This document shows, one piece after another, positions 4,261-61,743 of a stretch of DNA of 64,000 bases. The stretch comes from a virus. The stretch lies in the IMG/VR virus record IMGVR_UViG_3300012005_000003, positions 37,401 to 101,400 of that record; one strand, given 5' to 3'. The number at the start of each line of letters is the position of its first letter. The first letter of the stretch is position 1. Below the pieces are notes generated by a model. It was not told the DNA's origin, ran no database searches, and worked only from the letters and a program-made list of their open reading frames with translations. Position numbers and translations under genes: made by a program.

Positions 4261-4722
4261 ATGATAACAAACTTTAAACAATTTAATGAAAATCTGTTGG
4301 TTCCACGCAACCTGGAAGGGCGCAATGAGAAGCTCAAGCAGATTAACATCAAGCTGCTTTCTCAGGAAGTGATAGATGATAATTTAGAACTTGATGAGTC
4401 ATTCATGGACATAGATCCTAAATTCGTGAAACTGAAAAAAATAAATGGCACTGTTACATTAACAGGAAATCATTGGACCGAAATTCCTGAATGGTTAAAA
4501 GATGTGAAAATAAGTGGAATTTTTGATTGTTCAGATAATAAGTTAACAACTTTAAAAAATTGTCCTCAGGATATAGGAGGAAGTTTTTGGTGTGCGTTCA
4601 ACAAATTAACATCTCTTGAAGGATGTCCTAAAATATTAAAAAAATCTATCCATTGTTTTGACAATAAAGTTAAATTAAAACTTCCAGATTATGTTGATTT
4701 AAGAGGTAATATTTACAATTAA
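4261..4722 (+). CDS. LRR paralog 1 with capsid-targeting-like leader (3 FxCxxN repeats)
   Basis: MITNFKQFNENLLVPRN start; 22-aa repeats GGxFxCxxNxLTSLEGCP; close paralog of 49939, 50420 C-terminus, 59855 and 61216. Confidence 0.85.
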   Translation: MITNFKQFNENLLVPRNLEGRNEKLKQINIKLLSQEVIDDNLELDESFMDIDPKFVKLKKINGTVTLTGNHWTEIPEWLKDVKISGIFDCSDNKLTTLKNCPQDIGGSFWCAFNKLTSLEGCPKILKKSIHCFDNKVKLKLPDYVDLRGNIYN

Positions 4723-4725
4723 AAT

Positions 4726-5448
4726 TTAATCTTCATCTGAAGATTCTCCGTTTTCCATTTCTTCTTCACTCTGAACTGGTTCTATGAAATCTCCTTGCTC
4801 TCTTTGTAACATCTCGGCTTTATCAGAAGCGTCTTCTTTCTCTTGTTGTCTTTTAATATTTCTATCTTTGACAAATTCATCCAACATATTATTCATTTCT
4901 TTCATGTTCAAGATGTTAGTCTTGTCTTGTTCTGTTACATCTTCAGGAGTCATGATGGCCATGAACATCTCTTTCATAGATCTGTAGTTATTCTCTATTT
5001 CCTTAAATTTTATAGATAGAGATTTTATATTATCTCGCATATCCTTCTGCAGATTTCCTACAACTTCTATCATACGAGCACTATCATCACCATTATCGAG
5101 TTTAGTCATTCCTGATACGTATAATCTTTTGGATTGTTCAACCATGAATTTCAAATATGCATAACCTTCGATGTCTTCTTCCATCTTATCGATCACCAAT
5201 TGGTTTTTCAATGCCTCTTCACCCAGATGCATCTTCACTACTTCGACTATCATAGATCTTGATTTTCCTATGTATTTTTCAAGATCACTTTCGTAATCGT
5301 AAACTTGAACATTGTCGCCCAATCCTGGTATATCATCAGCAGTAGGAAAAAACTCTTTAGGATCAGTTTTCACTGAATTTATGACTAGTTCATAGTCGTC
5401 CATGAGATCTTTTTTCTTCTTTTGGTTTTCTGTTGGTTCTTTTGGCAT
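4726..5448 (-). CDS. Possible terminase small subunit (gp16-like)
   Basis: Helical protein; DSARMIEVVGNLQKDM resembles the T4 gp16 SPRHMEVFATLM segment; ATATATA box upstream. Confidence 0.45.
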   Translation of the reverse strand: MPKEPTENQKKKKDLMDDYELVINSVKTDPKEFFPTADDIPGLGDNVQVYDYESDLEKYIGKSRSMIVEVVKMHLGEEALKNQLVIDKMEEDIEGYAYLKFMVEQSKRLYVSGMTKLDNGDDSARMIEVVGNLQKDMRDNIKSLSIKFKEIENNYRSMKEMFMAIMTPEDVTEQDKTNILNMKEMNNMLDEFVKDRNIKRQQEKEDASDKAEMLQREQGDFIEPVQSEEEMENGESSDED

Positions 5449-5470
5449 ATTGCTATATATCTAGTTTGAT

Positions 5471-5800
5471 CTAAACAGGCTGATAGTCGAAAGAAGAGTC
5501 CATCTTCTTGAGCATTGCAAATTTCTTGATTAGTTCTTTCTTTATGTTTGGAAGTTTCAATCTTTCAATAAAAGACAAATCCCATTTGATATTACCGTTA
5601 TCGCCAAATCTACAAATAGATTTTCCAAAAGTTCTTCCTGGATCTTTTTCTTCCGAATCATAAACTGTTACAGATCCAAGGTGTCCAACACACTTCATGC
5701 CGTGTTTCGATAGCTCTGAAGCGAGTTCTATCAATCTCTGAGCCATGAAATCATTTCTTCTTTCATTGATAAATGTTTCATAGGTCTTAATAGTTTTCAT
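5471..5800 (-). CDS. Leader-tagged putative internal virion protein
   Basis: N-terminus MKTIKTYETFINE (compare T4 CTS MKTYQEFIAE). Confidence 0.75.
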   Translation of the reverse strand: MKTIKTYETFINERRNDFMAQRLIELASELSKHGMKCVGHLGSVTVYDSEEKDPGRTFGKSICRFGDNGNIKWDLSFIERLKLPNIKKELIKKFAMLKKMDSSFDYQPV

Positions 5801-5804
5801 ATGC

Positions 5805-5814
5805 TTATATATAA
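5805..5814. promoter_or_regulatory. Palindromic TTATATATAA late-promoter-like box between two divergent leader-tagged genes
   Basis: Lies in the 33-bp gap between divergent starts at 5800 (-) and 5834 (+). Confidence 0.55.
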
Positions 5815-5833: not shown

Positions 5834-6445
5834 ATGATCCATAATTTCAAACAGTTTCTTAACAAAATATACGAAGGCTACCAAGTTCCAAACGATGGTA
5901 GAAAATATAAATCTCTTTCTAGCGATGATATGAAAAAGATTGCAAGTAGAAGATTATCAGATTCTGATATGAAACATCCTAGTCATGATATTGAAACAGC
6001 AGAAGTTGAAAAGGCTCCAAAGCTTAAAACAATGCCAGGATTCAGAAGACTCATGTATAAGGATGCGGATCCTAAAAATATCAATGCAATCGCTTATGGT
6101 CCACTTGATATAGTTTTTGAACTAGATTTGGAAAACATACCAGTTTATTCTGAATATCTAGAATCAAAACATAAAAACAAAAATGGATATGGCATAGGAA
6201 AGGCTTTATATTATGGATGGTCAGCAGATCAATACAGTGATCAGCCTTATTTCTTTGTGACTTTATCTATAAACGATTCTAATGACAAACCAGCAGCAAA
6301 CTTCATTCCTGATGTTCCTGTAGACGAACATGAAATGTATGATCTTGTCTGGCAATTACTGGATGCGATAGATGATGTTAAAAGTGACAAAGAAGAATTA
6401 CTCAATCCTATATATGTTACTAGCGGTAGACTAACCGATAAATAG
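5834..6445 (+). CDS. Leader-tagged putative internal virion protein (start revised to 5834)
   Basis: MIHNFKQFLNKIYE at 5834. Confidence 0.7.
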   Translation: MIHNFKQFLNKIYEGYQVPNDGRKYKSLSSDDMKKIASRRLSDSDMKHPSHDIETAEVEKAPKLKTMPGFRRLMYKDADPKNINAIAYGPLDIVFELDLENIPVYSEYLESKHKNKNGYGIGKALYYGWSADQYSDQPYFFVTLSINDSNDKPAANFIPDVPVDEHEMYDLVWQLLDAIDDVKSDKEELLNPIYVTSGRLTDK

Positions 6446-7806: not shown

Positions 7807-8352
7807 ATGAAACATATGAAACATATTAAACTTTTTGAAACATTCATTGCTGAATCCAAACAGTCATTTCCTGATATCCAGAAAGAGAAGAAGGAACTTG
7901 ACAAATTAGGAAGATATGAGATATTTGTTGGTAAACCTGAACAAGTGTCTAATTTTTTGAAAGAATGTGATCCTGACATGTTGAAATGGATCCAGGAGAT
8001 GTCTGATACACAAGTCAAAGTATATCTTTCGCCGAACAATAGATATCTTATGAGACCTATCGGAATCTTATCTTTAGAAAAAGGTTTATTGAAAGTTGAT
8101 TTAAATAAAGCAAGATTGTTAGAATCCATCAACTGGATGAGCATGGAAATACCCGCAGAATCAGAATGGGAAATAACAGATGGTAAATTCAAAGATTCCA
8201 AAGTGTATAAAATCAAGAAATTTGATAATTCTTACATTATACCTTCAGATAGAGTAAATTGGTTTAAAGAACATATTGGAACAACAGTTAGATTCAAATA
8301 CGATCCATCTGAAATGTTGATGACCAATATTCATATCAGTAAAAGAGCTTAA
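7807..8352 (+). CDS. Leader-tagged putative internal virion protein
   Basis: MKHMKHIKLFETFIAE; AATATATAC at 7795-7803. Confidence 0.8.
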   Translation: MKHMKHIKLFETFIAESKQSFPDIQKEKKELDKLGRYEIFVGKPEQVSNFLKECDPDMLKWIQEMSDTQVKVYLSPNNRYLMRPIGILSLEKGLLKVDLNKARLLESINWMSMEIPAESEWEITDGKFKDSKVYKIKKFDNSYIIPSDRVNWFKEHIGTTVRFKYDPSEMLMTNIHISKRA

Positions 8353-13159: not shown

Positions 13160-13202
13160 ATATCTAAATTAATATTTTTATTTGATTAATGTATATTTTT
13201 AC

Positions 13203-20061: not shown

Positions 20062-20871
20062 ATGATTATCAACTTTGAAAAATGGAAGTCTATAAATGAA
20101 AACAGAATTGTAGAAACTGATCATTTAATAGCATATTTAGAATCCATCAAAAAGATGGAACCGAGTAAATATAAATCTCATTCTGATCCAAATAAAGAAA
20201 TCGACAAAGTGAAAGATGAAGCTTTTCAAATGCTTTTATCCGAAGAAACAGAATATGATATGAAGGATATCATGATGGATTTTGCAACCTATGATTCACC
20301 TGAAAATGACGAAAATATGGAAGATGCAATATGGAATAAAAATTTTGTAGAATCTCTAGATGAAGATTTTGACCCTGAGAATGTTTACAGACAAGCTTCT
20401 TTCAAAGATCTCAAGTCTAATTTCTCTGAAGATGGATATCAAATGTTTTTAAAACACGCTAGAAATGTATTCGATTCTGAATCAGATGAGATGATTTCAA
20501 AAGTTGAAGAAAGTTATTCAGAAGATGGCTATATTGATATATGGAGAGCTGTAGTGTACAAAACAGAAGAGTTATCAAAGATCAAAAGTAAATATGCTGG
20601 AGTTGGAGTCTATTGGTCGTGGGAAGAAAATACAGCAGAATCTTACCATGCTGAATTCATAGGACATGATATCGTTTTGCATGGAAAGGCTACCACAGAA
20701 AGTATAGATTGGAAGAACACTCTATATAAAAATGTTTATATTCTGAAATATGAAAAAGAAATACTATTGAAAGACTATAGTTCTGTAATGATTGTAGGTT
20801 TTCATGATAGCAAAACAAACAAATACGTAAAATTAGACGAACCTATAGTTGTGAATACTGGAATATCTTAA
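20062..20871 (+). CDS. Leader-tagged protein, possible ADP-ribosyltransferase fold
   Basis: MIINFEKWKSINE; IWRAV...GVYWSW...YEKEILL (R-S-ExE pattern); AATATATAG at 20050-20058. Confidence 0.55.
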   Translation: MIINFEKWKSINENRIVETDHLIAYLESIKKMEPSKYKSHSDPNKEIDKVKDEAFQMLLSEETEYDMKDIMMDFATYDSPENDENMEDAIWNKNFVESLDEDFDPENVYRQASFKDLKSNFSEDGYQMFLKHARNVFDSESDEMISKVEESYSEDGYIDIWRAVVYKTEELSKIKSKYAGVGVYWSWEENTAESYHAEFIGHDIVLHGKATTESIDWKNTLYKNVYILKYEKEILLKDYSSVMIVGFHDSKTNKYVKLDEPIVVNTGIS

Positions 20872-22475: not shown

Positions 22476-22877
22476 TTAAACATTTTTACAAAATTCTATA
22501 AATTCATTATCAAAATTTCCTTGTTCGTCAAATACTCTATGATCTAGATATTCTTCATCCTGAACAAAGAATGGATAGTTTGATTTGTTGTTATATCTAG
22601 CAACAAACATGTATTCTTTATCATTGATAAAGAACTTAATATTCGAAATAGTTAAATCACCATCAGTTGTCATTCCTATTTCAAATGCTTCAGAATTATG
22701 TTCAACTTTAACTCCATCAGGAGCTTTATCATCATGAATCAGTAAACATAAACGACCTACACATTTCAATAGCTTAGCTTCGTTAAATAGATCTCTTGGA
22801 AGCACCCTATCGTAATTCAGATTGATCTTATTTTCGGAATAAGATTCAAACTGTTTGAATGTTTTGATAGGTTTCAT
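22476..22877 (-). CDS. Leader-tagged putative internal virion protein (start revised to 22877)
   Basis: MKPIKTFKQFESYSE. Confidence 0.7.
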   Translation of the reverse strand: MKPIKTFKQFESYSENKINLNYDRVLPRDLFNEAKLLKCVGRLCLLIHDDKAPDGVKVEHNSEAFEIGMTTDGDLTISNIKFFINDKEYMFVARYNNKSNYPFFVQDEEYLDHRVFDEQGNFDNEFIEFCKNV

Positions 22878-29325: not shown

Positions 29326-29329
29326 AAAC

Positions 29330-41686: not shown

Positions 41687-41693
41687 AAAACAT

Positions 41694-42829: not shown

Positions 42830-43138
42830 ATGAAACATATAAAACTATTTGAACAGTTCATAAACGAAAACAAAGAAATATCTTTTAAAATTTCTTATGA
42901 AAAAGATGGATCTTATGAAAAAACAGACATTGTTATAAATATACACGCAGGTAATTCAGGATTTGTAGGAACTGCAAAAGGAATATATAATAAAAAAAAG
43001 GTTGATGCAACGATTTTTTATGGATATGATGATCAATGTTTATCTATAGAAGATGAAAATCTTAGTGAAGAAGATATTGAAATGTTAACCGATATTATAG
43101 ATAACGATGATAATTTTATAGAAAACATTAATAAATAA
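42830..43138 (+). CDS. Leader-tagged protein, paralog of 30827..31138
   Basis: MKHIKLFEQFINE. Confidence 0.8.
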   Translation: MKHIKLFEQFINENKEISFKISYEKDGSYEKTDIVINIHAGNSGFVGTAKGIYNKKKVDATIFYGYDDQCLSIEDENLSEEDIEMLTDIIDNDDNFIENINK

Positions 43139-43171: not shown

Positions 43172-43759
43172 ATGAAACATATTAAATTATACGAACAGTT
43201 CCTTAATGAAAGCAAAAGTTTTAGCATGGGAGATTTTAAACAATCATTATCTAAATATATGGATACTTTCGAGGATTATTGCAAAAGAAAAGGAGTTGGT
43301 GAAGATCTCAAAGATAGAGCTTTAGATTTATTAAGAGAAATAAAAAATAAAGCTGAAAATGATAACAAATTATTCGATATTGTTTGCGATTGGATGATTG
43401 GAGAAGGATCAACTTTAAAACTTCAGGCTATTCTAAGAGAAATTACATCATACCAAGGTGGAAATCGAGAAATTGCAAATTCACCTGAACAATTATTAGA
43501 TTTTAATGCCTTTGCATTACTTGATACTGTTTCAATGCATAATAAACAAGCTGGTAAAATACCTACAAGTTTTTCTTTCTTTGAGGTTCAATTCGGATTG
43601 AGTCATGCAGTGAAAAATGGCATTTTGGATAAAAAAGAATTAGATAGAATAGAAGATGCAATTACTGATAATAGAGTAAAAACTGATAAATTAAAAGAGA
43701 TCTTAGGAGACAGAGCTGATGAACTTATAAATTTCATCATTGACAAAAACAAATACTAA
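43172..43759 (+). CDS. Leader-tagged putative internal virion protein
   Basis: MKHIKLYEQFLNE. Confidence 0.8.
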   Translation: MKHIKLYEQFLNESKSFSMGDFKQSLSKYMDTFEDYCKRKGVGEDLKDRALDLLREIKNKAENDNKLFDIVCDWMIGEGSTLKLQAILREITSYQGGNREIANSPEQLLDFNAFALLDTVSMHNKQAGKIPTSFSFFEVQFGLSHAVKNGILDKKELDRIEDAITDNRVKTDKLKEILGDRADELINFIIDKNKY

Positions 43760-43809: not shown

Positions 43810-44127
43810 TTAAAATTTTTCATTGGATGTTGTTGTCAAATGATATCCAGATACTGTGTATAATATAGTACCATCTCCGAATTCAACATCGTAATATTCA
43901 TGATTCTTATCGCCTAATTCTGTATAAGTTGCTAAACATTCAATAATAGCTTTTTTACCATCAAGTTGATCTAATTTATGTTCCCACCAGTCTGAATCAT
44001 GTTCTTCTTCATCGAAACCAAATTCTGTAGCTCCGACTCCATTCAAATCAAATGTAACTTCAGTTCCATTAGGAATAGATTGTTGTTTTTTGTTTTCGTT
44101 TAAAAACTGTTTAAAATTATTTATCAT
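43810..44127 (-). CDS. Leader-tagged putative internal virion protein
   Basis: MINNFKQFLNE. Confidence 0.8.
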   Translation of the reverse strand: MINNFKQFLNENKKQQSIPNGTEVTFDLNGVGATEFGFDEEEHDSDWWEHKLDQLDGKKAIIECLATYTELGDKNHEYYDVEFGDGTILYTVSGYHLTTTSNEKF

Positions 44128-44159: not shown

Positions 44160-44599
44160 TTAGATGAATTCTGTGTAATGTTTTTCGTAGCATTTTAATA
44201 CAGCAATCAACGGAGAACCAAAATCTTCCATAAATCCCATATATTCGTCTTTAACATCTATTTCTTTTCCGTTAACTTTTAAAGTTGCATAGTTTTTCTT
44301 AGAGTCAGAAGGGTTTGGGCTTATTACATATTTACATTCTAACGAAACTTGATGTCCGTTACTTAATTCAATATCATATCATTTCTTTCTGAACCTATAG
44401 AACCTTCTACAGAAGTAACTGTAATAGCAGGAACAGGAGAAAAATTCCATTTTTTGATCTTTACTTCTTCGCTAGGAGCTTGACCATCAAATTCATCATT
44501 AAATTCTACATTAAAACTTTCAATTTTTGTAGCTTCAGCTAATTTTTCAACTGTATCATCTTTTCCTTCATTCAGGAACTGATTAAAGTTTTTTATCAT
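44160..44599 (-). pseudogene. Leader-tagged gene with one frameshift near 44370
   Basis: MIKNFNQFLNE...; an alternative frame continues IELSNGHQVSLECKY...HYTEFI* to 44160. Confidence 0.65.
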
Positions 44600-44602: not shown

Positions 44603-44921
44603 CTATATATTATTATTATTTTTGTTGATAAGAGCATTAAGCTCTTTCATTATTGCATCATGTTCTGTCCTGCATTCCTTGGAATTATAAGGATTATATC
44701 CTCCGTTTCCCCATTCGGACCAGCATATCAGCAGTATTTCACCTTTTTCTAATTATCAGCAGCCATTACAAGCATTGATGCATCAGGTGATGTATATTTG
44801 CTATCATCTTCAGGATCCCAATTTGGTGATATTTATCAATGAATTTTCTGATCCTGCTTGCAAGATCTTTCATATATTCAATATTGTTTTCATTTAAGAA
44901 CTCTTTAAAATTGTTTATCAT
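44603..44921 (-). pseudogene. Leader-tagged gene with two apparent frameshifts (not in ORF track)
   Basis: MINNFKEFLNENNIEY..., then PNWDPEDDSKYTSPDASMLVMAAD, then LEKGEILLICWSEWGNGGYNPY in different frames. Confidence 0.6.
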
Positions 44922-45378: not shown

Positions 45379-45774
45379 TTATTTAATTTTATATTCATCA
45401 AACAACTGATAGACTTCTTTTGCTATGGTTTTAAACCAATTAACTTGTACATGATCTTCATCTTCTTCATCAGCATCAGCTTTCATCAAATCGAAAATAT
45501 AAGATAAATTTATGATTTTTTCAAAATCGTAATCTATGTTAAAGCTAGAAGGCAGACCGCTGATCCAATCAGCGAAACCTTTTATGTTTTTTTCTTTGTG
45601 ATATTCACTTTTAAAACAGTCAAACAAAAATTGTAATCTATCTTTATCTGATTTTAAAACAATGTTATAATTATCTGCATCGATAGCATTCAAAATATAG
45701 ATATCCAGAGCTTCTTTGTTTGTTGTCGATGTTGATTCATTGACGAATTGTTGAAATGTTTTGATATTTTTCAT
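45379..45774 (-). CDS. Leader-tagged putative internal virion protein
   Basis: MKNIKTFQQFVNE. Confidence 0.8.
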   Translation of the reverse strand: MKNIKTFQQFVNESTSTTNKEALDIYILNAIDADNYNIVLKSDKDRLQFLFDCFKSEYHKEKNIKGFADWISGLPSSFNIDYDFEKIINLSYIFDLMKADADEEDEDHVQVNWFKTIAKEVYQLFDEYKIK

Positions 45775-46211
45775 TAATCTTTTTTAGTTTTTTCTTCTGT
45801 TTGTGGATTTGGATCTTCCATTCTGCCAAGATCCAAGATCGATTTCTTCATCTTGTAAAGAGTTTCATTTTCAGGAGTGCTCTTCATGATCTCAGTGAAT
45901 GCCATTTTTGTAAAATCTATACATTGTTTGATATCATCAAATTCGAATCTTTTGCTCAGATTGATATTTTTAGGTTTTGCAGTAAATGAAATATACCATT
46001 GGTTGCTATCGTCTTTGGACCAATGATTACCAGAAACATTATTAATAGATCCAATGTTTATATCATTAGCTAATATTTCATAACCTCTCAGACTATTACG
46101 AGCCACAACAGAAGCCAATCCAGTTGATGCTGAATATCTCTTGGTTTTGAATTTGTATAAATCTTTCTCTTTCTTTACTTCGTTCATGAAACCATCAAAA
46201 TTCTTTATCAT
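45774..46211 (-). CDS. Leader-tagged putative internal virion protein
   Basis: MIKNFDGFMNE. Confidence 0.75.
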   Translation of the reverse strand: MIKNFDGFMNEVKKEKDLYKFKTKRYSASTGLASVVARNSLRGYEILANDINIGSINNVSGNHWSKDDSNQWYISFTAKPKNINLSKRFEFDDIKQCIDFTKMAFTEIMKSTPENETLYKMKKSILDLGRMEDPNPQTEEKTKKD

Positions 46212-46213
46212 GG

Positions 46214-46606
46214 TTAGAATATAACTTTTATTTTCTTTGTTTTGAAGTCTATATCGATCTCCTGTGGTTCTACAGTGCCACCGAATTCAAAATTGTTGAT
46301 CTCGGATTCAAACTGCCAGTTTGAATCAGCTTCAAATTCAAGTTCTTTTACATCATCTTTATCTTCTTCAGGAGTTGTTACTGTGTAATCACCGTAAACC
46401 TTTAATATTTCTACATCGAATGAAGATATGCCATGTTTTGTTTCATATATGTTCGTTTTCCATTCTATGGTCATGTCTAACGGATCAACATATTGTTCTC
46501 CTTCTACAGGTTTATTGTAAAGATTAACAAATCTATAGCCAAGCTTAGTTTTGAAATTATCAGTTGTGTTAGATTCATTTAAGAATTTATTGAAATTTTT
46601 GATCAT
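46214..46606 (-). CDS. Leader-tagged putative internal virion protein
   Basis: MIKNFNKFLNE; AATATATAG upstream. Confidence 0.8.
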   Translation of the reverse strand: MIKNFNKFLNESNTTDNFKTKLGYRFVNLYNKPVEGEQYVDPLDMTIEWKTNIYETKHGISSFDVEILKVYGDYTVTTPEEDKDDVKELEFEADSNWQFESEINNFEFGGTVEPQEIDIDFKTKKIKVIF

Positions 46607-46661: not shown

Positions 46662-47168
46662 TTATTTCTTGGATTTTTCTTTTTGTGAAACTTTCAATAT
46701 CTTTTCAACACTCAATGGACTTGGAATCCATCCTCCTTTATAATCTGAAATCTTACTTTTTATAATAGAGAAAGCTTTTTCTATTTTATCTCTTTCCTTT
46801 CCTTGGATGTGTATATATCCTCCAGTTTCACAAAAATATTTAATATCTTCTACATTGAAAAGTGAAACCACACCCATCAGAACAGTCCAAGGATCTTCAT
46901 CCTTCAAAGGTTCTAGTTCATGATTCAACTTGATAAGATCTTCCAACATTATTTTGAATATTGGATTATTCATGTCTCCAATTTTGTCAAATATATTGAA
47001 TATATTTTTACGATATATGTCAGCATTTATATCATCAGACATCATATAGTCTGTGTAAAGATCCAATCCAAATGCATCAGAAACAACCTTGCTTGGAAGA
47101 TAGTTGGTGTCTGTTACAAATTTTGGAGTATTTTTGGATTCTTTCAGAAAATTGTTAAATTTTTTAAT
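46662..47168 (-). CDS. Leader-tagged protein lacking a canonical start (frame open to ATT 47168)
   Basis: IKKFNNFLKESK lies in frame upstream of the track ORF, preceded by TTG-TAG-CGT; sits at the TnpB right end. Confidence 0.55.
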   Translation of the reverse strand: MKKFNNFLKESKNTPKFVTDTNYLPSKVVSDAFGLDLYTDYMMSDDINADIYRKNIFNIFDKIGDMNNPIFKIMLEDLIKLNHELEPLKDEDPWTVLMGVVSLFNVEDIKYFCETGGYIHIQGKERDKIEKAFSIIKSKISDYKGGWIPSPLSVEKILKVSQKEKSKK

Positions 47169-49204: not shown

Positions 49205-49924
49205 TTAAATACCTAAAACTTTTCTTATATTACTGATTTTGGATTTTATCTGTGCATCCATGGCATCGTAAAGTTCTACTTTACCATCATCAAAGATTGC
49301 AAAAGCTAACTTGTACCAATCTTTATTACCTCCTGACAATTTATCAAGTTCCTCTCTCATTTTTTCATTTCTTACTAGAACATAATAAAATGTTACATCT
49401 CTTTTGAAAAAATAATCATTGAAATGTGAATTGTTTTTGTATGTTGTGCACCATGCGCTGTCACAATCGTTATTTCTGTGAGCAAATACAGTAAGGCCTA
49501 ATTTTCTACTGGCTTCATGTGTGTTCGGACTTGCAATGTATAGATCTTTATCATCCTTTATAAGATCGTAATCATCTTCTAGCTCTTTCATTGATGCAGT
49601 ACCTCTGCTGTTCAATTCGTCTATATAAGATTTGAACTCATCTAATGATTTAAATGTACCTATGTCATTCTTTTCAGCTTTGCTTTTTCCTACTAAAAGA
49701 TCATATTCTTCTACATAAGATTTGATGCTATCAACAGCATAAGCTTCTTCAATGTACATCTTAGATAACCAACCTACATATTTTTTAGTCTTGGAAGGGT
49801 CTATAGCAATGATAGAATCTACAGTCTTTTGAGAAATCTTACCAGCTTTGATGTAAGCTTCTGCTTGTTTCTTGTTTTCGTTTAAATGGATGTTTTTCCA
49901 TTCATTCATGTTTGTTATGATCAT
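49205..49924 (-). CDS. Leader-tagged putative internal virion protein
   Basis: MIITNMNEWKNIHLNE; HEASRKLG...WCTTY motif. Confidence 0.7.
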   Translation of the reverse strand: MIITNMNEWKNIHLNENKKQAEAYIKAGKISQKTVDSIIAIDPSKTKKYVGWLSKMYIEEAYAVDSIKSYVEEYDLLVGKSKAEKNDIGTFKSLDEFKSYIDELNSRGTASMKELEDDYDLIKDDKDLYIASPNTHEASRKLGLTVFAHRNNDCDSAWCTTYKNNSHFNDYFFKRDVTFYYVLVRNEKMREELDKLSGGNKDWYKLAFAIFDDGKVELYDAMDAQIKSKISNIRKVLGI

Positions 49925-49938: not shown

Positions 49939-50406
49939 TTAATTATTAAATTCACCTTTAAGTTTCACATAATCAGGAAGTTTTAATTCAACTTCATTCT
50001 CGCCACAATTAAGATCTCCTCCTATATTTTTAGAGCACCCATCCAAAGATATTAATTGATTAACACAACAATTAAAATTTTTTCCTACACTATGTGGACT
50101 ATTTTCCAATGACATTAATTGATTATGATTGCAATCAAAATCTCCTGTTATTTCAATATCTTTAAACCATACAGGAAATGTTGTCCAATCTTCTCCATCT
50201 AAATAAACATTACCTTTCACTTTCTTAAGCTTGACAAACTTAGCATCAACATCCATGAATGATGAATCAAGATTTAAAGGTCCTTCTATCACTTCCTGAG
50301 AAAGTAACTTGATGTTCATTTGCATTCTTTTTACTTTCCTCTCTTCAATGTTGCGAGGAACTAACAGGTTTTCATTTACGAATTGTTTAAAATTTGTTAT
50401 GATCAT
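49939..50406 (-). CDS. LRR paralog 2 (3 repeats) with leader
   Basis: MIITNFKQFVNENLLVPRN. Confidence 0.85.
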   Translation of the reverse strand: MIITNFKQFVNENLLVPRNIEERKVKRMQMNIKLLSQEVIEGPLNLDSSFMDVDAKFVKLKKVKGNVYLDGEDWTTFPVWFKDIEITGDFDCNHNQLMSLENSPHSVGKNFNCCVNQLISLDGCSKNIGGDLNCGENEVELKLPDYVKLKGEFNN

Positions 50407-50419
50407 GTTCTATATTTTT

Positions 50420-52261
50420 TTAATTTTTAAATTGACCTTTCAATTTAACATAATTAGGAAGTTCTAATTCGCCTTTATTATTTTGGCAATAAAAATCTCC
50501 TCCTACATTTTCAGGACAACCTTCCAAAGTTGTTAATTCATTACTTGTACAACTAAAATTTCCTCCTATGTATTCAGGACATCCTTGCAAAGATGTTAAT
50601 TTGTTATTATAACATTGAAAACTTCCATTTATATTATCTGGACTTCCTTCCAGAGATGTTAAATCATTATATGAACAACCAAAATCTCCTCCTATCTTCC
50701 GTGGACAGTTTTTCAATGTAGTTAATTTATTATTATAACAATTAAAATCGCCATTTACTTCAACATCTTTCAGCCATGCAGGTATTTCAGTCCATTGTTC
50801 TCCTGTTAACCAAACATCTCCATTAACTTTTTTCAGTTTTACGAACTTTGGATCTATGTCCATGAAGGATTCATCAAGCTTAAGTTCTCCATCTATCACT
50901 TCCTGAGAAAGCAGCTTGATGTTAATCTGCTTGAGCTTCTCCTTGCGCCCTTCCAGGTTACGAGGAACTAACAGGTTTTCATTTACGAATTGTTTAAAGT
51001 TTGTTATGATTTTACTTTCTCCTAATTTATTTTGTGCTATATCATGTTTGATATCTTTAACGATATCGTTTATCTCTTTTGTTGCATTTTTATCTCCTGA
51101 TAAAATGTTCTTCATTATAGCATTAAACTCTTTAGCTGGTTTAGAAGATAAAACAGCTATAATATTATTTTTGTATTCTTCGTTTCTGCTATCGTATATA
51201 GCATCATTCAATCTCTGCCAGAATCCAGGCCCTAGTCTCAGAGCCATTCTTTCAGAAGCTAAAGAATCTGCAGCTTTTATAACTTTTGTTCTTTCTTCAC
51301 TTGATAATGAATCATGTGACATCAATAATTCTGTAACTCCTTTTGCCAATTCGTGAATCAGGAATGGAAACGATGTTGCAGTTACAATGATTTTTGGAGT
51401 ATCATCCTGAAGATCCAATTTTATTTTACCAACACTTGATTCTTCTCCTCCGAAGTTATCAGGAACTACCCAGTATCCGTATTCAGACATCACGCTTAAT
51501 ATAGAATACATATCTACTAAACCTGGATGAATCTTTTTAAGTCCATCAGAAATCAAATGATATGCATATGTAGTTTTTACTGCAGAACCATGAATAAGAC
51601 TGTTGATGAATTTTCTCTTTTCCACTTCAAGCTCCAAACCAGTTAAATCATCTGCTATTTCTTCTGCATCTTCATCGTCTATGTCAGATAATGAAATCTC
51701 ACCATGTTTTATCATCTTGGCTTCGAAATCTACATCATCTTCTGATATATTAAATTCTTTACAGATAAGATCTATTGCAAGTTTTTCCAAATCTTCTATA
51801 TGATCAGCTTCTATCTCGACAACTTCATTGTAAACTTTCATCAACAACATCTGAAGATCCATCATATTTTCTATATCAATATGTTTGTCGTGTACATATG
51901 ACTGTAACTTATCAACTATCTCTTTGAATCTCTCATCAGCTATAATCTTATCAAAATCTTCATTTGGATAAGCTGGGTTTTTTGCCAAACTGTGAGTTTT
52001 AGATTTCAAAGATTTGTCTATATCAGAGTGTCTCTTGTGAGACATAGCTTCGTTTAAAACTTCTGATATAAGCTTGTATGCTTTTGGCTTTGGAGATTCT
52101 TTTGGATCTCTTTTTCCAGGTTTGAATGGATTGATCGAAGGCTTAGTTGCAGGTTCTGCAATCTTTGGTTCACTTGGAGCAATCAAAGGTTGAGGCTCTT
52201 TTGTGTTCTTTTCGTTTAATCTCTTTTTAAAGTTTGTAAAATCTGATAATTTTTTAAACAT
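50420..52261 (-). CDS. Leader-tagged helical protein fused to LRR paralog 3 (5 repeats, ~50420..51013)
   Basis: MFKKLSDFTNFKKRLNE; LIHELAKGVTE; internal KIITNFKQFVNENLLVPRN starts the LRR module. Confidence 0.8.
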   Translation of the reverse strand: MFKKLSDFTNFKKRLNEKNTKEPQPLIAPSEPKIAEPATKPSINPFKPGKRDPKESPKPKAYKLISEVLNEAMSHKRHSDIDKSLKSKTHSLAKNPAYPNEDFDKIIADERFKEIVDKLQSYVHDKHIDIENMMDLQMLLMKVYNEVVEIEADHIEDLEKLAIDLICKEFNISEDDVDFEAKMIKHGEISLSDIDDEDAEEIADDLTGLELEVEKRKFINSLIHGSAVKTTYAYHLISDGLKKIHPGLVDMYSILSVMSEYGYWVVPDNFGGEESSVGKIKLDLQDDTPKIIVTATSFPFLIHELAKGVTELLMSHDSLSSEERTKVIKAADSLASERMALRLGPGFWQRLNDAIYDSRNEEYKNNIIAVLSSKPAKEFNAIMKNILSGDKNATKEINDIVKDIKHDIAQNKLGESKIITNFKQFVNENLLVPRNLEGRKEKLKQINIKLLSQEVIDGELKLDESFMDIDPKFVKLKKVNGDVWLTGEQWTEIPAWLKDVEVNGDFNCYNNKLTTLKNCPRKIGGDFGCSYNDLTSLEGSPDNINGSFQCYNNKLTSLQGCPEYIGGNFSCTSNELTTLEGCPENVGGDFYCQNNKGELELPNYVKLKGQFKN

Positions 52262-52333: not shown

Positions 52334-52945
52334 TTAGTCTTTTTTGGTTTTATCTGATATATCAGCTGGATCCGTTCCTTCAGGAACGTTATCAACTATA
52401 TCAACGAAAGTTCGGTTGTAAATAGCCGCTTCCTTTTCAGAATATGAATCCTGTAATGCTTTGATGAAAGCTTTTGGAGTCTTAGGATCTTTGTTTATTT
52501 TTTTATTCCATGAATTACCAATTTCCAAAGTGTAACCGAAATAATTGATCATATCTACTAAAGTTCCTATGACATATTTAGTTCTGCTACCATTTCTGCT
52601 AGATTCCACTTTAACTATGAAAGATTTATCCATTTTTGCTTCTAACACTACTTCAATTCCTTCTTTGACATTTTCCTTCTTAGCTTGTTTCAAAGCATCA
52701 TCAAATATGTTTTTTTCAGGATTGATATTTGCAACAAATGCCAACATGCCTACAACTTCTTTCTCGTTGTCATCTGTAGCCTTCATTAAGGCATCGTAAA
52801 GTTCTTTACCAGTCTTGAAAGATCCTGAAACAGTTTCATCTTCTTTCAATCCTAACAATTTGTGCATTTTACCTTGTTTAGGCTTAAATTTATCAGAAAA
52901 GAAGTTTTTCTTTTCATTAACAAAATCTTCAAATCTTTTGATCAT
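52334..52945 (-). CDS. Leader-tagged protein directly downstream of portal
   Basis: MIKRFEDFVNE; AATATATAA upstream. Confidence 0.8.
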   Translation of the reverse strand: MIKRFEDFVNEKKNFFSDKFKPKQGKMHKLLGLKEDETVSGSFKTGKELYDALMKATDDNEKEVVGMLAFVANINPEKNIFDDALKQAKKENVKEGIEVVLEAKMDKSFIVKVESSRNGSRTKYVIGTLVDMINYFGYTLEIGNSWNKKINKDPKTPKAFIKALQDSYSEKEAAIYNRTFVDIVDNVPEGTDPADISDKTKKD

Positions 52946-52979: not shown

Positions 52980-54632
52980 TTAAGAAGCTGGTTGTTCAGG
53001 TTGTTCAGGTTGTTCTGCTGGAGCTTCTGCAGCTGGAGCTTCTGCAACCGGTTCTTCACCAGCTGGTTCTGCAGCTATTTCCTCGGTTGGAACTTGTCCA
53101 AGTTTTCTCATTTTCGCTTTTTTGTTCTCTTCTATCTCAATATCAGTCAGTTTTAAAATCCTCTTGATCAAGTAATCTATATCGAAGTATGACTCTGGAG
53201 CTTCTTTTGGAATATTGGTTAATAGATTTGCAAGAATGTTTGCTCTCTTTTCCAAGATACCAATCTCTTTCCACTCTTCGAACATGTTGTTCTGATTGAA
53301 ACGAACATTGATAGAATTTATAAAAGAAGCATCGTTCTTCAATTCTGGAAATTCTAATAAAGTCTGTATGATCAAAGGTTTCACAATGATCTCTTTGAAC
53401 ATAGCTCTCAATCTGGATACAAAATTAGTAAATCTCATTTCATCACGAGTCACCTCTGATGCATCAGAGAATATGTTACCACCACCAGTTGAGCCATCAA
53501 GACGTGATGCCGGAACTTTTGAACTTCTCTTCAGAGCTCCCATGAACCAGTTCAACATGGATTCTTCGTTAAGATCTGCCGTATCTGGTTTTATCATTTC
53601 TATACTAGGAGTTCCAGATTCAGATTCAGGAAACCACCATTGTTTACTGAAAGGTATATGAGCTGAACCATTGATTGATACTGTTCCCATTTCATCATTA
53701 AATGATACTTCATCTTTGTAATCAGCTATCAACTGTCCTATCTCTTCCTCTGCTCTGGTTTTTGATAAACCTCCAACAGGGATGATGAACTTCTGATACA
53801 TTGTAGCATTCATGATATTGAACATGATACGAGACTGTTCTATCAATTTCAACTGATTGTAAGGCCGTATTAAATTCTCAACATAACTGGTTTCGAAAAT
53901 ACCAATGCTGTTGTTTCCAGAATATGCCAGATATATGATAGAAGAATCCAACATGATTTTTCTATTTTGTATATCGTTAGGATGTTGTATCCATACTTTC
54001 TTTCCTGACATAGGTTCTACCGCAGGAACCAGTGTTGCAGGATCCAACATTTTTATATCTATGATCACCTTCTGTCTGTCATCGTATACAATCTCGAAAG
54101 CCAAGTAACCATCGACAATGAATTGTCTGAAATAGTTCCATGCTGTGATACCATCGTTAAATCCTAGTGTATTGTACACTTGTTCGAATATCTGATAATA
54201 ACGGTCTTTTACTTTCTTTGCTACATTCTCTTTGAGATCTACAGGGAAACAGAATTTTGATCCATCGTCATAATCTATTGCATCATCACAAACTATTGTG
54301 ATATACTCACTGATCTCACCTTTGACAGAATACTGTCTCAATATCTTCTGTTTTTCAGTATATGCAAAATTCAAAAATGCAACAGATTTCTTTTCTAGAA
54401 CTTTAGAAACAGCTCTTCTTGAAAAAATATCATACATGCTACCAGATGTAGCAAGAGTATTAGGATCTTCATTTATTCCAGTTGCACTAGAATTCTTGAG
54501 GATCATATCATCGTATTTCATACCCCAGTTCCATGAGGAAAGATCTCTCAATACTTTATTGTAGAAAGATTTATTGCCTATGTTACTAGGTGAGTACTGT
54601 ATCTGACGATATGGGTTTGCTGATCCTGCCAT
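52980..54632 (-). CDS. gp20: Portal protein (T4 gp20-like)
   Basis: FRQFIVDGYL, RPYNQLKLIEQS, VGGLSKTRAEE, KVPASRL, EVTRDEMRFTNFVSRLR. Confidence 0.92.
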   Translation of the reverse strand: MAGSANPYRQIQYSPSNIGNKSFYNKVLRDLSSWNWGMKYDDMILKNSSATGINEDPNTLATSGSMYDIFSRRAVSKVLEKKSVAFLNFAYTEKQKILRQYSVKGEISEYITIVCDDAIDYDDGSKFCFPVDLKENVAKKVKDRYYQIFEQVYNTLGFNDGITAWNYFRQFIVDGYLAFEIVYDDRQKVIIDIKMLDPATLVPAVEPMSGKKVWIQHPNDIQNRKIMLDSSIIYLAYSGNNSIGIFETSYVENLIRPYNQLKLIEQSRIMFNIMNATMYQKFIIPVGGLSKTRAEEEIGQLIADYKDEVSFNDEMGTVSINGSAHIPFSKQWWFPESESGTPSIEMIKPDTADLNEESMLNWFMGALKRSSKVPASRLDGSTGGGNIFSDASEVTRDEMRFTNFVSRLRAMFKEIIVKPLIIQTLLEFPELKNDASFINSINVRFNQNNMFEEWKEIGILEKRANILANLLTNIPKEAPESYFDIDYLIKRILKLTDIEIEENKKAKMRKLGQVPTEEIAAEPAGEEPVAEAPAAEAPAEQPEQPEQPAS

Positions 54633-55953: not shown

Positions 55954-56457
55954 TTACTCTTTGATTCTGTTTAAGTGTTTCTCAGTGATGATGTAGAATT
56001 CAAGATCTCTTGCTTTGCAATATTCTTTAGCTCTCTCCCATTTGTATACATTTTTTGTATATGTCTTGATCTGGTATTCGAACGATTCCAGTTTTTTAGA
56101 ATTTGCATTCTTTGGCAACACTGGCGGCTTCGTTTCGTTCAGAGGTTTAACTTCCAACACCATGCGTTTGAATTTGTCTGGGTTGCCGTCTATACACATT
56201 TCAACATAGAAATCAGGATAATACCTGTGAGGTTTACCCATCATGTCGTTATATTTGATCTCTATGAATTCAGCACCCCATCTTGCAACTTTTCCTGTAC
56301 CTGATAAATAATCCAACCATATCATGATCCTTTTTTCCCAGGATGATCTGAAATACAAACCACCTTCATTGTTCAGTTTGATCACCTTGTTTTTGTTCTG
56401 TGGTGTATACAGTCCTTGCTGGTAGTTACCTCTCTGTGTCGGTTTACTATTAAGCAT
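55954..56457 (-). CDS. gp4: Head completion nuclease (gp4-like)
   Basis: FRSSWE, RWGAE, HRYYPDF, LEVKP, KWERA, IITE. Confidence 0.88.
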   Translation of the reverse strand: MLNSKPTQRGNYQQGLYTPQNKNKVIKLNNEGGLYFRSSWEKRIMIWLDYLSGTGKVARWGAEFIEIKYNDMMGKPHRYYPDFYVEMCIDGNPDKFKRMVLEVKPLNETKPPVLPKNANSKKLESFEYQIKTYTKNVYKWERAKEYCKARDLEFYIITEKHLNRIKE

Positions 56458-57121
56458 TTAATACATAATGGAATTTCTGTTTGTCTGCTGTAGAATAAGT
56501 GACGTCTTTTATATCTTCTATAGTGATGACGTCTTTAAATTTCTTTAAATATTTTTCACCAGTTCCTTTCAAGCAATAAGCCAATGTGATATGAGGAACA
56601 TACGCATCGTAATCTGATTTATAAGGAAACTCTTTCAATTCTTCATGAAGAGCTATAAGTTCTTCAGAAGGTATGACTGCGATCTTGACAACATCGAATT
56701 TCTCATTATCGAACATGCTGATTTCTGAAATCTGAACTGTGAAAGGTTCATACTGCATGATCACTTTTTCTACATCTTCTGGAGTTGCTGCATCTTCATC
56801 ATCTTGTTCAGAAACCAAACCGTACAAAGCTGTTATATGGACATCGTCCTGTTTTCCAAATCTGTTCGGGTTTTCAGGATCGTTGTATAAATCTTCATCA
56901 GATATCTCGTCTTGCATCTTTCTGATTATATCTATAGAGTCGCCATTTGTGACATCCAACATCACACATCCGTAACTGTATTTTGCTTTCTCCTCTTTTC
57001 CTTCGTTTAGAAAAATATGATCAGCAATACCAATACGACCTTTTTTATGAATAGTGTTCGAAGCTTCTAAAATTTTAGAAGCTAAAGATCTTTGTTTTAG
57101 AAACCCTTTGAAATCTAACAT
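56450..57121 (-). CDS. 2H phosphoesterase, T4 57B/Acb1-like, with a leader-like N-terminal extension
   Basis: Two HxT motifs (VHITALYG, PHITLAY); YSYGCVM; MLDFKGF...IFLNE. Confidence 0.8.
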   Translation of the reverse strand: MLDFKGFLKQRSLASKILEASNTIHKKGRIGIADHIFLNEGKEEKAKYSYGCVMLDVTNGDSIDIIRKMQDEISDEDLYNDPENPNRFGKQDDVHITALYGLVSEQDDEDAATPEDVEKVIMQYEPFTVQISEISMFDNEKFDVVKIAVIPSEELIALHEELKEFPYKSDYDAYVPHITLAYCLKGTGEKYLKKFKDVITIEDIKDVTYSTADKQKFHYVLNA

Positions 57122-57159: not shown

Positions 57160-57546
57160 TTACAAATGGTGAAGTCCTTCACCATCATTTGCTCTATCTA
57201 GAGACATTAATCTGATCAAGTTGTCAGGATCACCCTTCTTCTTATGAAGTTCGTTGTAACCTGCTGCAATACCTCGTTTGAAAATTTCTGTGTAGTAAGA
57301 GAATGCATCAGTGTATTTCTCTTCATTGAATTTAGACCAGTTATCGAACAGGTTTAATAATCCTGTCTGTATACAATCCTTACGATCGTCAGGATTGGAA
57401 TACACCATCTTGCGAATTGCTCTGTCTGCAATCTTTTTTAGCATCTCTTCAGCATCTCTGGTTAAAAAACCGTACGCTTTGGAGATCACGATCTGTTTGT
57501 AGATCTCTTTTTTGTCAATATAGAAATTGTTGATATTATCAGCCAT
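57160..57546 (-). CDS. gp55: Late-transcription sigma factor (gp55-like)
   Basis: YIDKKE...IADRA...DCIQTG...KFNEEKYTDAFSYYTEI parallels T4 gp55 YVNNKE...NFDETKYKNPHAYITQ. Confidence 0.8.
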   Translation of the reverse strand: MADNINNFYIDKKEIYKQIVISKAYGFLTRDAEEMLKKIADRAIRKMVYSNPDDRKDCIQTGLLNLFDNWSKFNEEKYTDAFSYYTEIFKRGIAAGYNELHKKKGDPDNLIRLMSLDRANDGEGLHHL

Positions 57547-59769: not shown

Positions 59770-59854
59770 TTGATATATTTATTTTTTGTACCTATTCAGG
59801 CTTTTGTGATAGTATATATTTAAAAAATCTAACCCTTTTTTGCTAATTCTGATT

Positions 59855-60379
59855 TTAATTTATAAATTTACCTTTTAAATCAACATAATCTGGAAGTTCC
59901 AATTTATATTTGTTTCCATAACAATAAAAATCTCCTCCTATATTTTCAGGACATCCTTCCAGAGATGCTAAATTGTTATAATAACAATCAAAATCACCTC
60001 CTATATTTTCAGGACATCCTTCCAGGGATATTAATCTATTTCTAGCGCACTTAAAACTTCCTCCTATTTCTTTTGGGCAGTTTTTCAGTGTTGTCAATTT
60101 ATTACCTGAACAACTAAAATTACCATTTACTTCAACATCTTTCAGCCACTCAGGAATTTCAGTCCATTCTAATGACGATAACCGAATATTACCATTCACC
60201 TTTTTAAGTTTTACGAACTTTGCATCTATGTCCATGAAGGATTCATTTAGCTCTAAATCTCCATCTATCACTTCCTGAGAAAGCAATCTGATGTTCATCT
60301 GTTTACGTTTTACATGTCTTTCTGCAAGGTTGCGTGGAACCAACAGGTTTTCATTGAATTGTTTAAAGTTTGTTATCAT
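59855..60379 (-). CDS. LRR paralog 4 (4 repeats) with leader
   Basis: MITNFKQFNENLLVPRN; TATATAGATCATG start context. Confidence 0.85.
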   Translation of the reverse strand: MITNFKQFNENLLVPRNLAERHVKRKQMNIRLLSQEVIDGDLELNESFMDIDAKFVKLKKVNGNIRLSSLEWTEIPEWLKDVEVNGNFSCSGNKLTTLKNCPKEIGGSFKCARNRLISLEGCPENIGGDFDCYYNNLASLEGCPENIGGDFYCYGNKYKLELPDYVDLKGKFIN

Positions 60380-60391
60380 GATCTATATATT

Positions 60392-61213
60392 CTATGCAGG
60401 ATCTGTGTTCAGATGATCTGTTGATAAATTATCAGGATTTCCGTATTTGATATAAGTATCCCATTGGACTCTCTTGTTTGCCAAAAAGAAATGCGTGCCA
60501 AATACTCCTGGAGCTGTAATATTTTCTTTTCCTGATAATAATGCCTGCATTGAAGCCAAAGATCCATTGTCACCTAGATCCATTGCTGGAAAAACACTCT
60601 TCACTTCGAAAGAATATTTGATAGCTATTTTGTTATCAGAAGACATGTTACTTTCTCTTGGAATAGTCATTTCTATACCTTCAGGTTGCTGCATGATGCC
60701 TTTGATACTTATTCCTCTGTGGTCAAATTCTAGGTATTTGTAAACCTGTAAAATAGACTGTATCTTAGATATGGCAACAAGAACATCCCTTTCAGAAGAT
60801 AATTGTATTTCTAAACTAAAAGAACATGTGATTGGAATTGGAACCACCTTAGAATAAACTTTCAATATCTCACTCTCAGATTCGAGATTAGATCTGATCC
60901 ATACATTAGGATTTGCCATTTCACCAAAATTTGCAGCCACAGATTCCAAATAAATATGTCCTCTTGGTATGATATCAGTGTTAAGTTCAACTCTTTTATC
61001 AACAATATCATCAACAAATGAATCCATTAAAAACCTTTCATCTCCTGATATGCTATAATAGAAAGGGACTGTAACGAGACGATTTTCTTTCTTGAAACGA
61101 TTGATCCACCATCTCCTATCTTGTAGTTTGGCGATCACTGCGATTATGAGATCTCTATAATAGACATCGTCATAGTTCATTAAATGATCGATAGATAAAT
61201 TTTCTTGGCCCAT
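60392..61213 (-). CDS. gp15: Tail terminator / sheath stabiliser (gp15-like)
   Basis: VTVPFYY, IPRGHIYL, PIPITCSFSLEI...DVLVAISKI. Confidence 0.7.
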   Translation of the reverse strand: MGQENLSIDHLMNYDDVYYRDLIIAVIAKLQDRRWWINRFKKENRLVTVPFYYSISGDERFLMDSFVDDIVDKRVELNTDIIPRGHIYLESVAANFGEMANPNVWIRSNLESESEILKVYSKVVPIPITCSFSLEIQLSSERDVLVAISKIQSILQVYKYLEFDHRGISIKGIMQQPEGIEMTIPRESNMSSDNKIAIKYSFEVKSVFPAMDLGDNGSLASMQALLSGKENITAPGVFGTHFFLANKRVQWDTYIKYGNPDNLSTDHLNTDPA

Positions 61214-61215
61214 TT

Positions 61216-61743
61216 TTATTTATTTTTAAATTTACCTTTTAATTTTACATAATCAGGAAGTTCTAATTTAACTTTATTATCACTACACCAAAAATCTCCT
61301 CCTATATTTTCAGGACAACCTTTCAGAGATGTTAATTTGTTCCATGAACAATTAAAACTTCCTGCTATATTTTTAGGACATCCTTCCAGAGATGTTAATT
61401 CATTATTATAACACCTAAACTCTCCTCCTATCTTCTGTGGACAGTTTTTCAATATTGTTAATTTATTGTCTGAACATAAAAAACTTCCCAATATTTTCAC
61501 ATCTTTCAACCATTCAGGAATTTCTGTCCATTGGTTTCCTGTTAATGTAACATCGCCATTAACTTTCTTGAGCTTGACGAACTTAGCATCGATATCCATG
61601 AAAGATTCATCAATCTTCAAATCTCCATCAATCACTTCCTGAGAAAGTAATCTGATGTTCATTTGTTTGAGTTTCTCCTTGCGGCCTTCTATATTTCTAG
61701 GGACTAGTAAATTCTCATTTACGAACGTCTTAAAATCTTTCAT
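61216..61743 (-). CDS. LRR paralog 5 (4 repeats) with leader
   Basis: MKDFKTFVNENLLVPRN; TATATAGATCATG start context. Confidence 0.85.
   Translation of the reverse strand: MKDFKTFVNENLLVPRNIEGRKEKLKQMNIRLLSQEVIDGDLKIDESFMDIDAKFVKLKKVNGDVTLTGNQWTEIPEWLKDVKILGSFLCSDNKLTILKNCPQKIGGEFRCYNNELTSLEGCPKNIAGSFNCSWNKLTSLKGCPENIGGDFWCSDNKVKLELPDYVKLKGKFKNK

Follow-up and report, generated by a model that had tools for sequence, protein, structure and literature searches.

Bacteriophage T4 uses a 10-residue tag to load three internal proteins and Alt into its head. On arrival, at least one of these proteins disarms a host restriction enzyme. The T4 capsid protein gp23 is itself cut after FLTE65. In the T4 record, ipII and ipIII begin MKTYQEFIAE/A (a slash marks a known or expected cut). 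The capsid-targeting sequences (CTSs) of IPII and IPIII, and also those of IPI and Alt, are removed by the prohead protease gp21 (Mullaney and Black 1996, as cited in PMC7411985; review PMC3012670). For the giant phages SPN3US, phiKZ, and 201phi2-1, propeptides have been proposed to target proteins to the prohead (PMC7411985, PMC5694885). Here we describe a short N-terminal leader shared by dozens of genes in a 64,000-nucleotide stretch of viral DNA (the window), which corresponds to bases 37401-101400 of one 101.4-kb virus contig, IMG/VR record IMGVR_UViG_3300012005_000003, with 30.6% GC.

A sequence-only reading of the window had proposed that the leader targets some 34 otherwise unrelated proteins to the capsid for injection with the DNA. 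Our analysis indicates that the leader is probably a tag of the T4 type for capsid targeting and processing, much expanded and common to a clade of uncultured giant phages. The tag was confirmed, and the head machinery, the cut-site motif, the roughly tenfold excess over T4, and the leucine-rich-repeat (LRR) and Acb1-like cargos that the reading had named found indirect support, while its ART-like and ParB-like cargo labels found none. Full-text literature searches found no paper with these leader strings or with such an expansion, and the scale of tagging, the link to a scaffold repeat, and the recurrence of Acb1-like and LRR cargos were likewise not found in the literature searched.

An N-terminal leader on unrelated proteins

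All 34 starts listed in that reading are starts of open reading frames (ORFs) with the motif or a looser form of it. The leaders read MKHIKLFEQFLNE/S, MIxNFKQFLNE/N, or a looser variant and are 13 to 14 residues long, with a conserved start, MKHIK(L) or MIxN. The contig has four further tagged genes, all upstream of the window. A strict pattern, [FY][KENDQT][QEDKT]F[LVIM][NQA]E, matched 21 times in the six frames of the contig, 20 times within 10 residues of a start methionine; the sole internal match is near residue 418 of the 613-amino-acid (aa) ORF 50420-52261. A scoring matrix built from 19 leaders, the check proposed with the original reading, scored 8 bits or higher at 28 N-terminal and 2 internal positions, compared with 0.35 in the shuffled proteome. 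Two of the 28 stand behind a spurious upstream ATG; the internal ones are the leader with its LRR module at residue 418 of 50420-52261 and IKNFKQLSNE in the scaffold. By the matrix, about 27 strong and about 10 loose leaders mark about 37 of about 151 genes, or about a quarter. When the bodies of these 37 proteins (from residue 23) were compared by BLASTP at 1e-3, they gave 31 clusters, of which 29 are singletons, one is a pair, and one is a family of six. The tagged genes of the window are as follows.

4261..4722 (+): tagged, MITNFKQFNE/NLLVPRN, LRR-like family
5471..5800 (-): tagged, MKTIKTYETFINE/R
5834..6445 (+): tagged, MIHNFKQFLNK, no Glu at expected cut site
7816..8352 (+): tagged, MKHIKLFETFIAE/S; in-frame MKH stutter from 7807
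20062..20871 (+): loosely tagged, MIINFEKWKSINE/N; no Pfam, PHROG, or Atlas function
22476..22877 (-): tagged, MKPIKTFKQFESYSE/N
22882..23220 (-): tagged, MKHINLFEQFLNE/S
26314..26787 (+): tagged, MIYKFKEFLNE/S
26788..27087 (+): loosely tagged, MKHIKSYINTDIRLFESFE/N
27260..28150 (+): tagged, MKHIKLFEQFIND, Asp replaces Glu
28151..28753 (+): tagged, MKHIKLYEQFVNE/S
28780..29325 (+): tagged, MKHIKLFEDFNKE/S
29330..29830 (+): tagged, MKHIKLYEEFSKTNE/T
29918..30559 (+): tagged, MIKNFKQFLNE/S
30836..31138 (+): tagged, MKHIKLFKDFLNE/S; stutter from 30827; body paralogous to 42830
41694..42329 (+): tagged, MKHIKLFEQFLNE/S
42334..42813 (+): tagged, MKHIKLYEQFVQE/K
42830..43138 (+): tagged, MKHIKLFEQFINE/N
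43172..43759 (+): tagged, MKHIKLYEQFLNE/S
43810..44127 (-): tagged, MINNFKQFLNE/N
44363..44599 (-): tagged, MIKNFNQFLNE/G
44766..44921 (-): tagged, MINNFKEFLNE/N, 51 aa
44924..45373 (-): loosely tagged, MYSFEQFKN...FVMNE25/S
45379..45774 (-): tagged, MKNIKTFQQFVNE/S
45774..46211 (-): tagged, MIKNFDGFMNE/V
46214..46606 (-): tagged, MIKNFNKFLNE/S
46662..47168 (-): leader-like IKKFNNFLKE/S without ATG; possible ATT start or pseudogene
49205..49924 (-): loosely tagged, MIITNMNEWKNIHLNE/N
49939..50406 (-): tagged, MIITNFKQFVNE/NLLVPRN, LRR-like family
50420..52261 (-): 613-aa protein, loose N-terminal tag MFKKLSDFTNFKKRLNE/K; full internal leader and LRR module from residue 418, KIITNFKQFVNE/NLLVPRN
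52334..52945 (-): tagged, MIKRFEDFVNE/K; adjoins portal gene, in the place of T4 gp67 and gp68
56450..57121 (-): Acb1-like 2H phosphoesterase, 41-residue N-terminal extension MLDFKGFLKQ...FLNE41/G
59855..60379 (-): tagged, MITNFKQFNE/NLLVPRN, LRR-like family
61216..61743 (-): tagged, MKDFKTFVNE/NLLVPRN, LRR-like family, structure-modeled member

Stuttered starts (MKHMKHIK...) occur at 7807, 30827, and 41661-41694; they come from duplicated AAACAYATG and provide alternative in-frame starts just before the leader.

The tagged genes abut head to tail, some starts are stuttered, and many ATGs are preceded by a conserved box 11 nt upstream, all of which would suit an explanation in which the shared start is a nucleic acid feature (a gene-shuffling recombination cassette or a translation initiation element) and the peptide is incidental. 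Codon usage argues against this. Where leaders share an amino acid, the fraction of identical codons is 0.579, compared with 0.532 expected from genome codon usage, and pairwise identity between leaders falls from 0.72 at codon positions 1 and 2 to 0.49 at position 3. Since synonymous positions are randomized, selection appears to act on the peptide and not on the DNA, and a recombination cassette or RNA element is largely excluded as the conserved entity. Furthermore, the peptide is kept with different codons across contigs of 24 to 43% GC, and the DNA upstream of the genes is unconserved outside the short box. The nucleic acid explanation is therefore largely refuted and, in our judgment, exceedingly improbable. 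By these measures, the leader is essentially N-terminal and is selected as a peptide.

Head genes and the scaffold repeat

The window carries T4-type head genes and the gene of a gp55-like sigma factor.

37079..38761 (-): major capsid protein, 560 aa; Pfam Gp23, 7e-30; N-terminal propeptide end YHQLNE45/N
38847..41078 (-): prohead protease fused to scaffold, 743 aa; phrog_207 head maturation protease, 1e-26
52980..54632 (-): portal protein, gp20 type; Pfam Portal_T4, 7e-70
57160..57546 (-): gp55-like late sigma factor; phrog_234, 3.7e-6

A gp15-like protein, a clamp loader, and a gp4-like head closure protein are also encoded in the window. The closest capsid proteins belong to uncultured phages of 630 to 735 kb (50 to 56% identity), and the next closest belong to Prevotella Lak phages (31%) and to Tenacibaculum phage PTm1 (27%), the closest cultured relative, whose capsid protein is 35% identical to that of the relative G005. 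Because of these relatives, the contig probably represents part of the genome of a very large T4-superfamily phage; judging only from the same capsid proteins, the host is likely to be a member of the Bacteroidota. Megablast of the head region against phages found no match at the DNA level.

The protease domain spans approximately residues 1 to 175 of the fusion and contains invariant DHP, SSRAAG, and E172. A profile of 18 such domains searched against the whole PDB matched only T4 gp21 (5JBL; E=2e-6), and phmmer of the whole protease-scaffold against the PDB gave no match. Residues 265 to 419 consist of eleven 14-residue repeats, YxxY[ILV]AE[NS], and leader-like sequences follow at residues 599 (FFTFLNE/S) and 606 (IKNFKQLSNE). 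From 3 to 15 such repeats are present in the scaffold of each of the 19 relatives examined, and T4 gp22 has comparable sequences, starting MLKEQLIAEA and including WLAEN.

Motif counts bore out the observation that the leader shares its [LIV]-x-E end with the capsid propeptide (YHQLNE45/N) and with sites throughout the protease-scaffold. The cut-site motif [LIVMF]NE[SNGK] occurs 44 times in the proteome, compared with 13.8+-3.5 in shuffles; 30 of the sites lie in the first 45 residues of a protein, five lie in the protease-scaffold (one of them being the invariant Glu that ends the protease domain), and one lies at the end of the capsid propeptide. The wider core [FYW]xx[FYW][LIVM]xE occurs 45 times, with 6.5+-2.9 expected: 23 sites are N-terminal, 12 are in the protease-scaffold (11 of them at the 14-residue period), and the other 10 are at about the chance level. 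In an alignment of capsid proteins from 18 phages, sequence conservation through the block YCH.H.L[NY]E gives way to a variable stretch, the pattern expected at a propeptide boundary. The L-x-E end was kept in 17 of the 18, with G019 having Asp instead.

Since the leader core matches the scaffold repeat, the tag resembles a single unit of the scaffold. Such a likeness suggests that cargo may join the core through the contacts that hold the scaffold together and may be freed by the same cuts. Under the capsid-targeting reading, the tagged proteins would be made late, and their N-terminal helix, having the sequence of one scaffold repeat, would let them join the scaffold core during prohead assembly. 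The scaffold-fused gp21-type protease would then cut after the Glu of [LIV]-x-E, as it would in the scaffold repeats and the capsid propeptide, and the mature cargo would stay inside the head with the DNA, to be delivered into the next host and possibly to act there. We infer scaffold binding, cleavage, virion retention, delivery, and cargo roles in the next host from these sequence patterns; injection and a counter-defense role would follow by analogy with T4. Complex prediction for the full protease-scaffold with a tagged LRR-like protein returned scores of 0.00 and 0.00, which is no answer and speaks neither for nor against binding.

Late synthesis would fit a promoter-like box, ATATATA[GA], which lies upstream of 14 of the 37 tagged genes and of 12 of the 114 others (p=3.6e-4); among the non-tagged genes with the box are the protease-scaffold gene and large ORFs that look structural. 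The box often stands exactly 11 nt before the ATG (...ATATATAGATCATG), for example at 4250, 20051, 26303, 44610, 60390, and 61754, a spacing that implies very short or absent 5' leaders with no Shine-Dalgarno sequence. The T4 late promoter is TATAAATA, and ATATATA[GA] is probably the late promoter of the clade. Together with the gp55-like sigma factor, the box would be in keeping with late expression. An RNA library yielded contigs over the capsid gene, the protease gene, and two tagged genes, but DNA can be present in such libraries.

Cargos, spread of the leader, and neighboring genes

The IMG/VR database was scanned with a degenerate DNA pattern for MKHIKL[FY]ExF that left the following residues free. 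The same leader was found on at least 119 stretches, from contigs of 5 to 482 kb with 24 to 43% GC, in front of diverse bodies, and the residues after it, which the pattern did not require, were mostly [LIV][NST]E. A Gp23 capsid protein is encoded on 21 of the 34 long leader-bearing contigs and on all 5 of those with a completeness of 90% or higher. In each of two essentially complete relatives (256 and 246 kb), 24 genes are tagged, and the motif recurs internally 0 and 2 times, respectively. In the 630- to 735-kb relatives, the 40 kb surrounding the capsid gene contained almost no strict matches, only looser variants. With one N-terminal rule applied to all genomes, the genes with the motif, out of those called, were as follows.

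This contig: 22 of 151
G005: 24 of 340
G019: 24 of 315
T4: 5 of 258, the credible ones being ipII, ipIII, and gp61.1

The roughly tenfold excess over T4 claimed at the outset holds under this single rule (22 of 151 versus 3 credible of 258). By these sequence comparisons, the leader is common among uncultured gp23-type phages, and the window is an unusually dense case of a trait of the clade. T4 gp61.1, a 54-aa hypothetical protein (NC_000866, 18966-19130, minus strand), has a very CTS-like start, MKTFKEFIKE/D. One leader-tagged family (...NEDGYGRDFFVKKKDGK...) is conserved across the IMG/VR loci L018, L048, L106, L121, L016, and L067, which indicates that tag-cargo pairs persist across phages. 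The contig probably came from a soil metagenome, and its 31-mers were also found in glacier, ice, microbial mat, and sediment metagenomes from at least 10 studies. Cover of the cargo arrays by related-strain contigs is fragmentary and is uninformative on payload swapping.

Two kinds of cargo can be named. The LRR-like family, recognizable by NENLLVPRN, numbers six proteins in or near the window and about 17 in G019, with three to five copies of an approximately 21-residue repeat, N.LTSLEGCP..IGG.F.C. In an AlphaFold2 model of the member at 61216..61743, the body has a mean predicted local distance difference test (pLDDT) score of 92, and the first ten residues form a separate, low-confidence helix (pLDDT 52). 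All of the top Foldseek matches in the PDB (SspH1, IpaH3, and YopM) are LRR proteins, but the E-values are weak, at best 8e-3, and the TM-scores are 0.4 to 0.5; Pfam gave only LRRNT at 3.5e-3, under the cutoff. The putative LRR assignment draws on the repeat sequence and the model. Across four metagenomes, the summed contig depth is very high over the LRR-repeat region 50340-51006, and many joints there skip or repeat parts, which fits a large multicopy family whose repeat number varies among related phages.

The Acb1-like label of 56450-57121 passed the Pfam cutoffs, with 2_5_RNA_ligase2 at 9e-15 and 55.5 bits (cutoff 27) and Acb1 at 31.2 bits (cutoff 27). HIT at residues 95 and 177 supplies both HxT motifs, leaving the predicted 2H active-site signature intact. 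Homologues on three other contigs bear the canonical leader directly, which indicates that this enzyme family has been tagged repeatedly. As for the ART-like and ParB-like labels, no Pfam match to either family was found in the bodies searched, including those at 20062, 26788, 28151, and 28780; moreover, 20062 and 28151 had no PHROG match, and the ESM Atlas gave no named family for 20062. Searches of about 30 bodies with Pfam, several with PHROGs, and two (20062 and 27260) in the ESM Atlas returned no function except the Acb1-like one, and the other Pfam matches of cargo bodies were weak, sub-cutoff, and to unrelated families. The cargos appear to comprise an Acb1-like enzyme, a small LRR-like family, and about 29 proteins of unknown fold.

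That most bodies have no recognizable function raises the question of whether the tagged proteins might instead be accessory parts of the core or scaffold, degraded and expelled at maturation like T4 gp22, gp67, and gp68, with no role in the next host. The equivalence of the tag with a scaffold repeat unit would suit such disposable parts, as would the tagged gene between the portal and protease genes, where T4 has gp67 and gp68. However, an Acb1-like enzyme with an intact 2H signature and a diversifying LRR-like family make little sense as throwaway parts, and the excess of cut sites is confined to N-termini and the scaffold, with other internal sites at chance.

Proteomes of cultured phages also bear on this point. 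Campylobacter phage NCTC12673 (26% GC) encodes five proteins with leader-like starts, listed here with their coverage in virion mass spectrometry (values of Kropinski et al. 2011 as given in Table S2 of PMC6024767).

gp001: MIYSKFLVE, 7.3%
gp002: MYSKFLNE, 17.9%
gp066: MYTKYLYE, 0%
"Putative exonuclease": MPFVKFINE, 9.5%
gp153: MNIYSIFLNE, 13.2% (row assigned by an inferred one-number offset, anchored on the gp4 and exonuclease rows)

Four of the five were thus detected, compared with 26 of 172 proteins overall (hypergeometric p=0.0019). Cyanophage S-SM1 has a single leader-like start, MKKFSAFLNE/A, on its T4-GC190 cytidylyltransferase, and this enzyme is present in purified virions (Sullivan et al. 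2010). These proteomes, which come from phages other than the one analyzed here, support a general rule in the T4 superfamily. Since similarly tagged proteins of NCTC12673 and S-SM1, including enzymes, are in mature virions, we consider it unlikely that the tagged proteins are disposable core parts.

That leader-scaffold binding is something we infer leaves room for a tag with a destination other than the capsid: a zymogen-type inhibitory peptide cut in the cytoplasm, or a dock for another phage structure, a chaperone, or a compartment. Such a propeptide or sorting tag would have to be reconciled with the specific match of the leader to both the scaffold repeat and the T4 tag, with its occurrence alongside gp23-type head genes, and with the presence of similarly tagged proteins in virion proteomes. 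We regard it as very unlikely.

Several other genes lie near the head module or between tagged genes. Directly downstream of the capsid gene are two large paralogous homing endonuclease genes (33442-35247 and 35278-36969, minus strand; phrog_3339, 1e-123 and 3e-106). PTm1 has a Hef-like homing endonuclease near its capsid gene, and NCTC12673 has several Hef homing endonucleases, some numbered adjacent to its capsid gene. A TnpB-like transposase gene of the IS200/IS605 type (47277-48398, minus strand; phrog_506, 1e-127) is located between tagged genes. A related-strain contig from a glacier metagenome fuses window position 47188 straight to 48519, indicating that the TnpB-like element is an insertion missing from the relative. 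Farther upstream, at 11871-13409 of the contig (G000), is a second ORF, of 512 aa, with a similar start, MLTYKLKLK.... The 473-aa ORF 31937-33358 (minus strand), earlier labeled a minimal ValRS, matches only function-unknown PHROG families (phrog_12710, 1e-52).

The capsid-targeting reading weighed and compared with known systems

Several points weigh against capsid targeting. To our knowledge, a quarter of all gene products in one capsid would be far beyond precedent. Packaging and cleavage in this phage, or in any with the exact leader, rest on sequence, and the capsid cut site at YHQLNE45/N is likewise placed only by its conservation. About 10 leaders are loose variants, two leaders are without Glu at the expected cut site, and several tagged arrays, such as 26314-31138, lie outside the head module. 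The box stands before only 14 of the 37 tagged genes, and late timing is assumed. In PTm1, a genome-wide pattern scan was at background, and the genes around the head module bear no leader. Finally, the leader P2 residue and the capsid site do not covary across phages (N and N in the window, mixed and Y in G005, S and F in G019), a result that is uninformative because T4-type specificity leaves P2 free.

A fuller version of the capsid-targeting reading can be put forward tentatively, as possible but short of probable. In this version, the tag is a copy of one scaffold repeat, whatever protein bears it assembles along with the scaffold, and a clade known from soil, ice, and sediment metagenomes preloads dozens of swappable proteins, including an Acb1-like enzyme that might break down immune signals and a diversifying group of small LRR binders, that are injected as a counter-defense kit. 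If true, hundreds of uncultured phages would each use one short peptide to mark dozens of virion-delivered proteins. The leader would then be a sequence-only marker of candidate injected effectors in metagenomes, among them LRR binders and prepackaged enzymes directed against cyclic-oligonucleotide-based antiphage signaling systems (anti-CBASS type). Mimicry of one scaffold repeat would be a testable mechanism for the tag, which could also serve as a natural, portable means of loading foreign proteins into large capsids.

Among other giant phages, SPN3US, phiKZ, and 201phi2-1 offer a comparison (PMC7411985, PMC5694885). Those are likewise giant phages with many head proteins and a T4-related protease that cuts at a Glu-ended motif. 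However, their propeptides are 100 to 130 residues long and have no single short consensus, and they belong to another phage lineage.

The closest parallel is T4 itself. The proposed likeness of the leader to the T4 CTS was supported: the architecture is the same, the core is the same, and gp21-, gp23-, and gp20-type head genes are present. In both systems, a short N-terminal peptide stands on unrelated proteins, with a core that is followed by a small or polar residue. This shared core is [FY]-x-x-F-[ILV]-x-E, and one leader reads FETFIAE/S. Both have a gp21-type protease, a gp23-type capsid protein, a gp20-type portal protein, and a capsid propeptide ending in L-x-E, and both appear to carry diverse cargos, which in T4 are thought to counter host defenses. 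The scaffold repeats resemble T4 gp22, gp67, and gp68, which gp21 cuts many times at [LI]-x-E. Unlike these T4 proteins, the scaffold here is part of the same protein as the protease and contains a regular array of 14-residue units, one of which the cargo tag appears to copy. The leader, at 13 to 14 residues with the start MKHIK(L) or MIxN, is also longer than the 10-residue T4 CTS, and one copy lies inside a protein, at a domain junction. By the strict rule, T4 has three credible tagged proteins in its whole genome, compared with 22 (of about 37 in all) on 101 kb in the present system, which is known from sequence and has a protease whose own scaffold repeats carry the tag motif.

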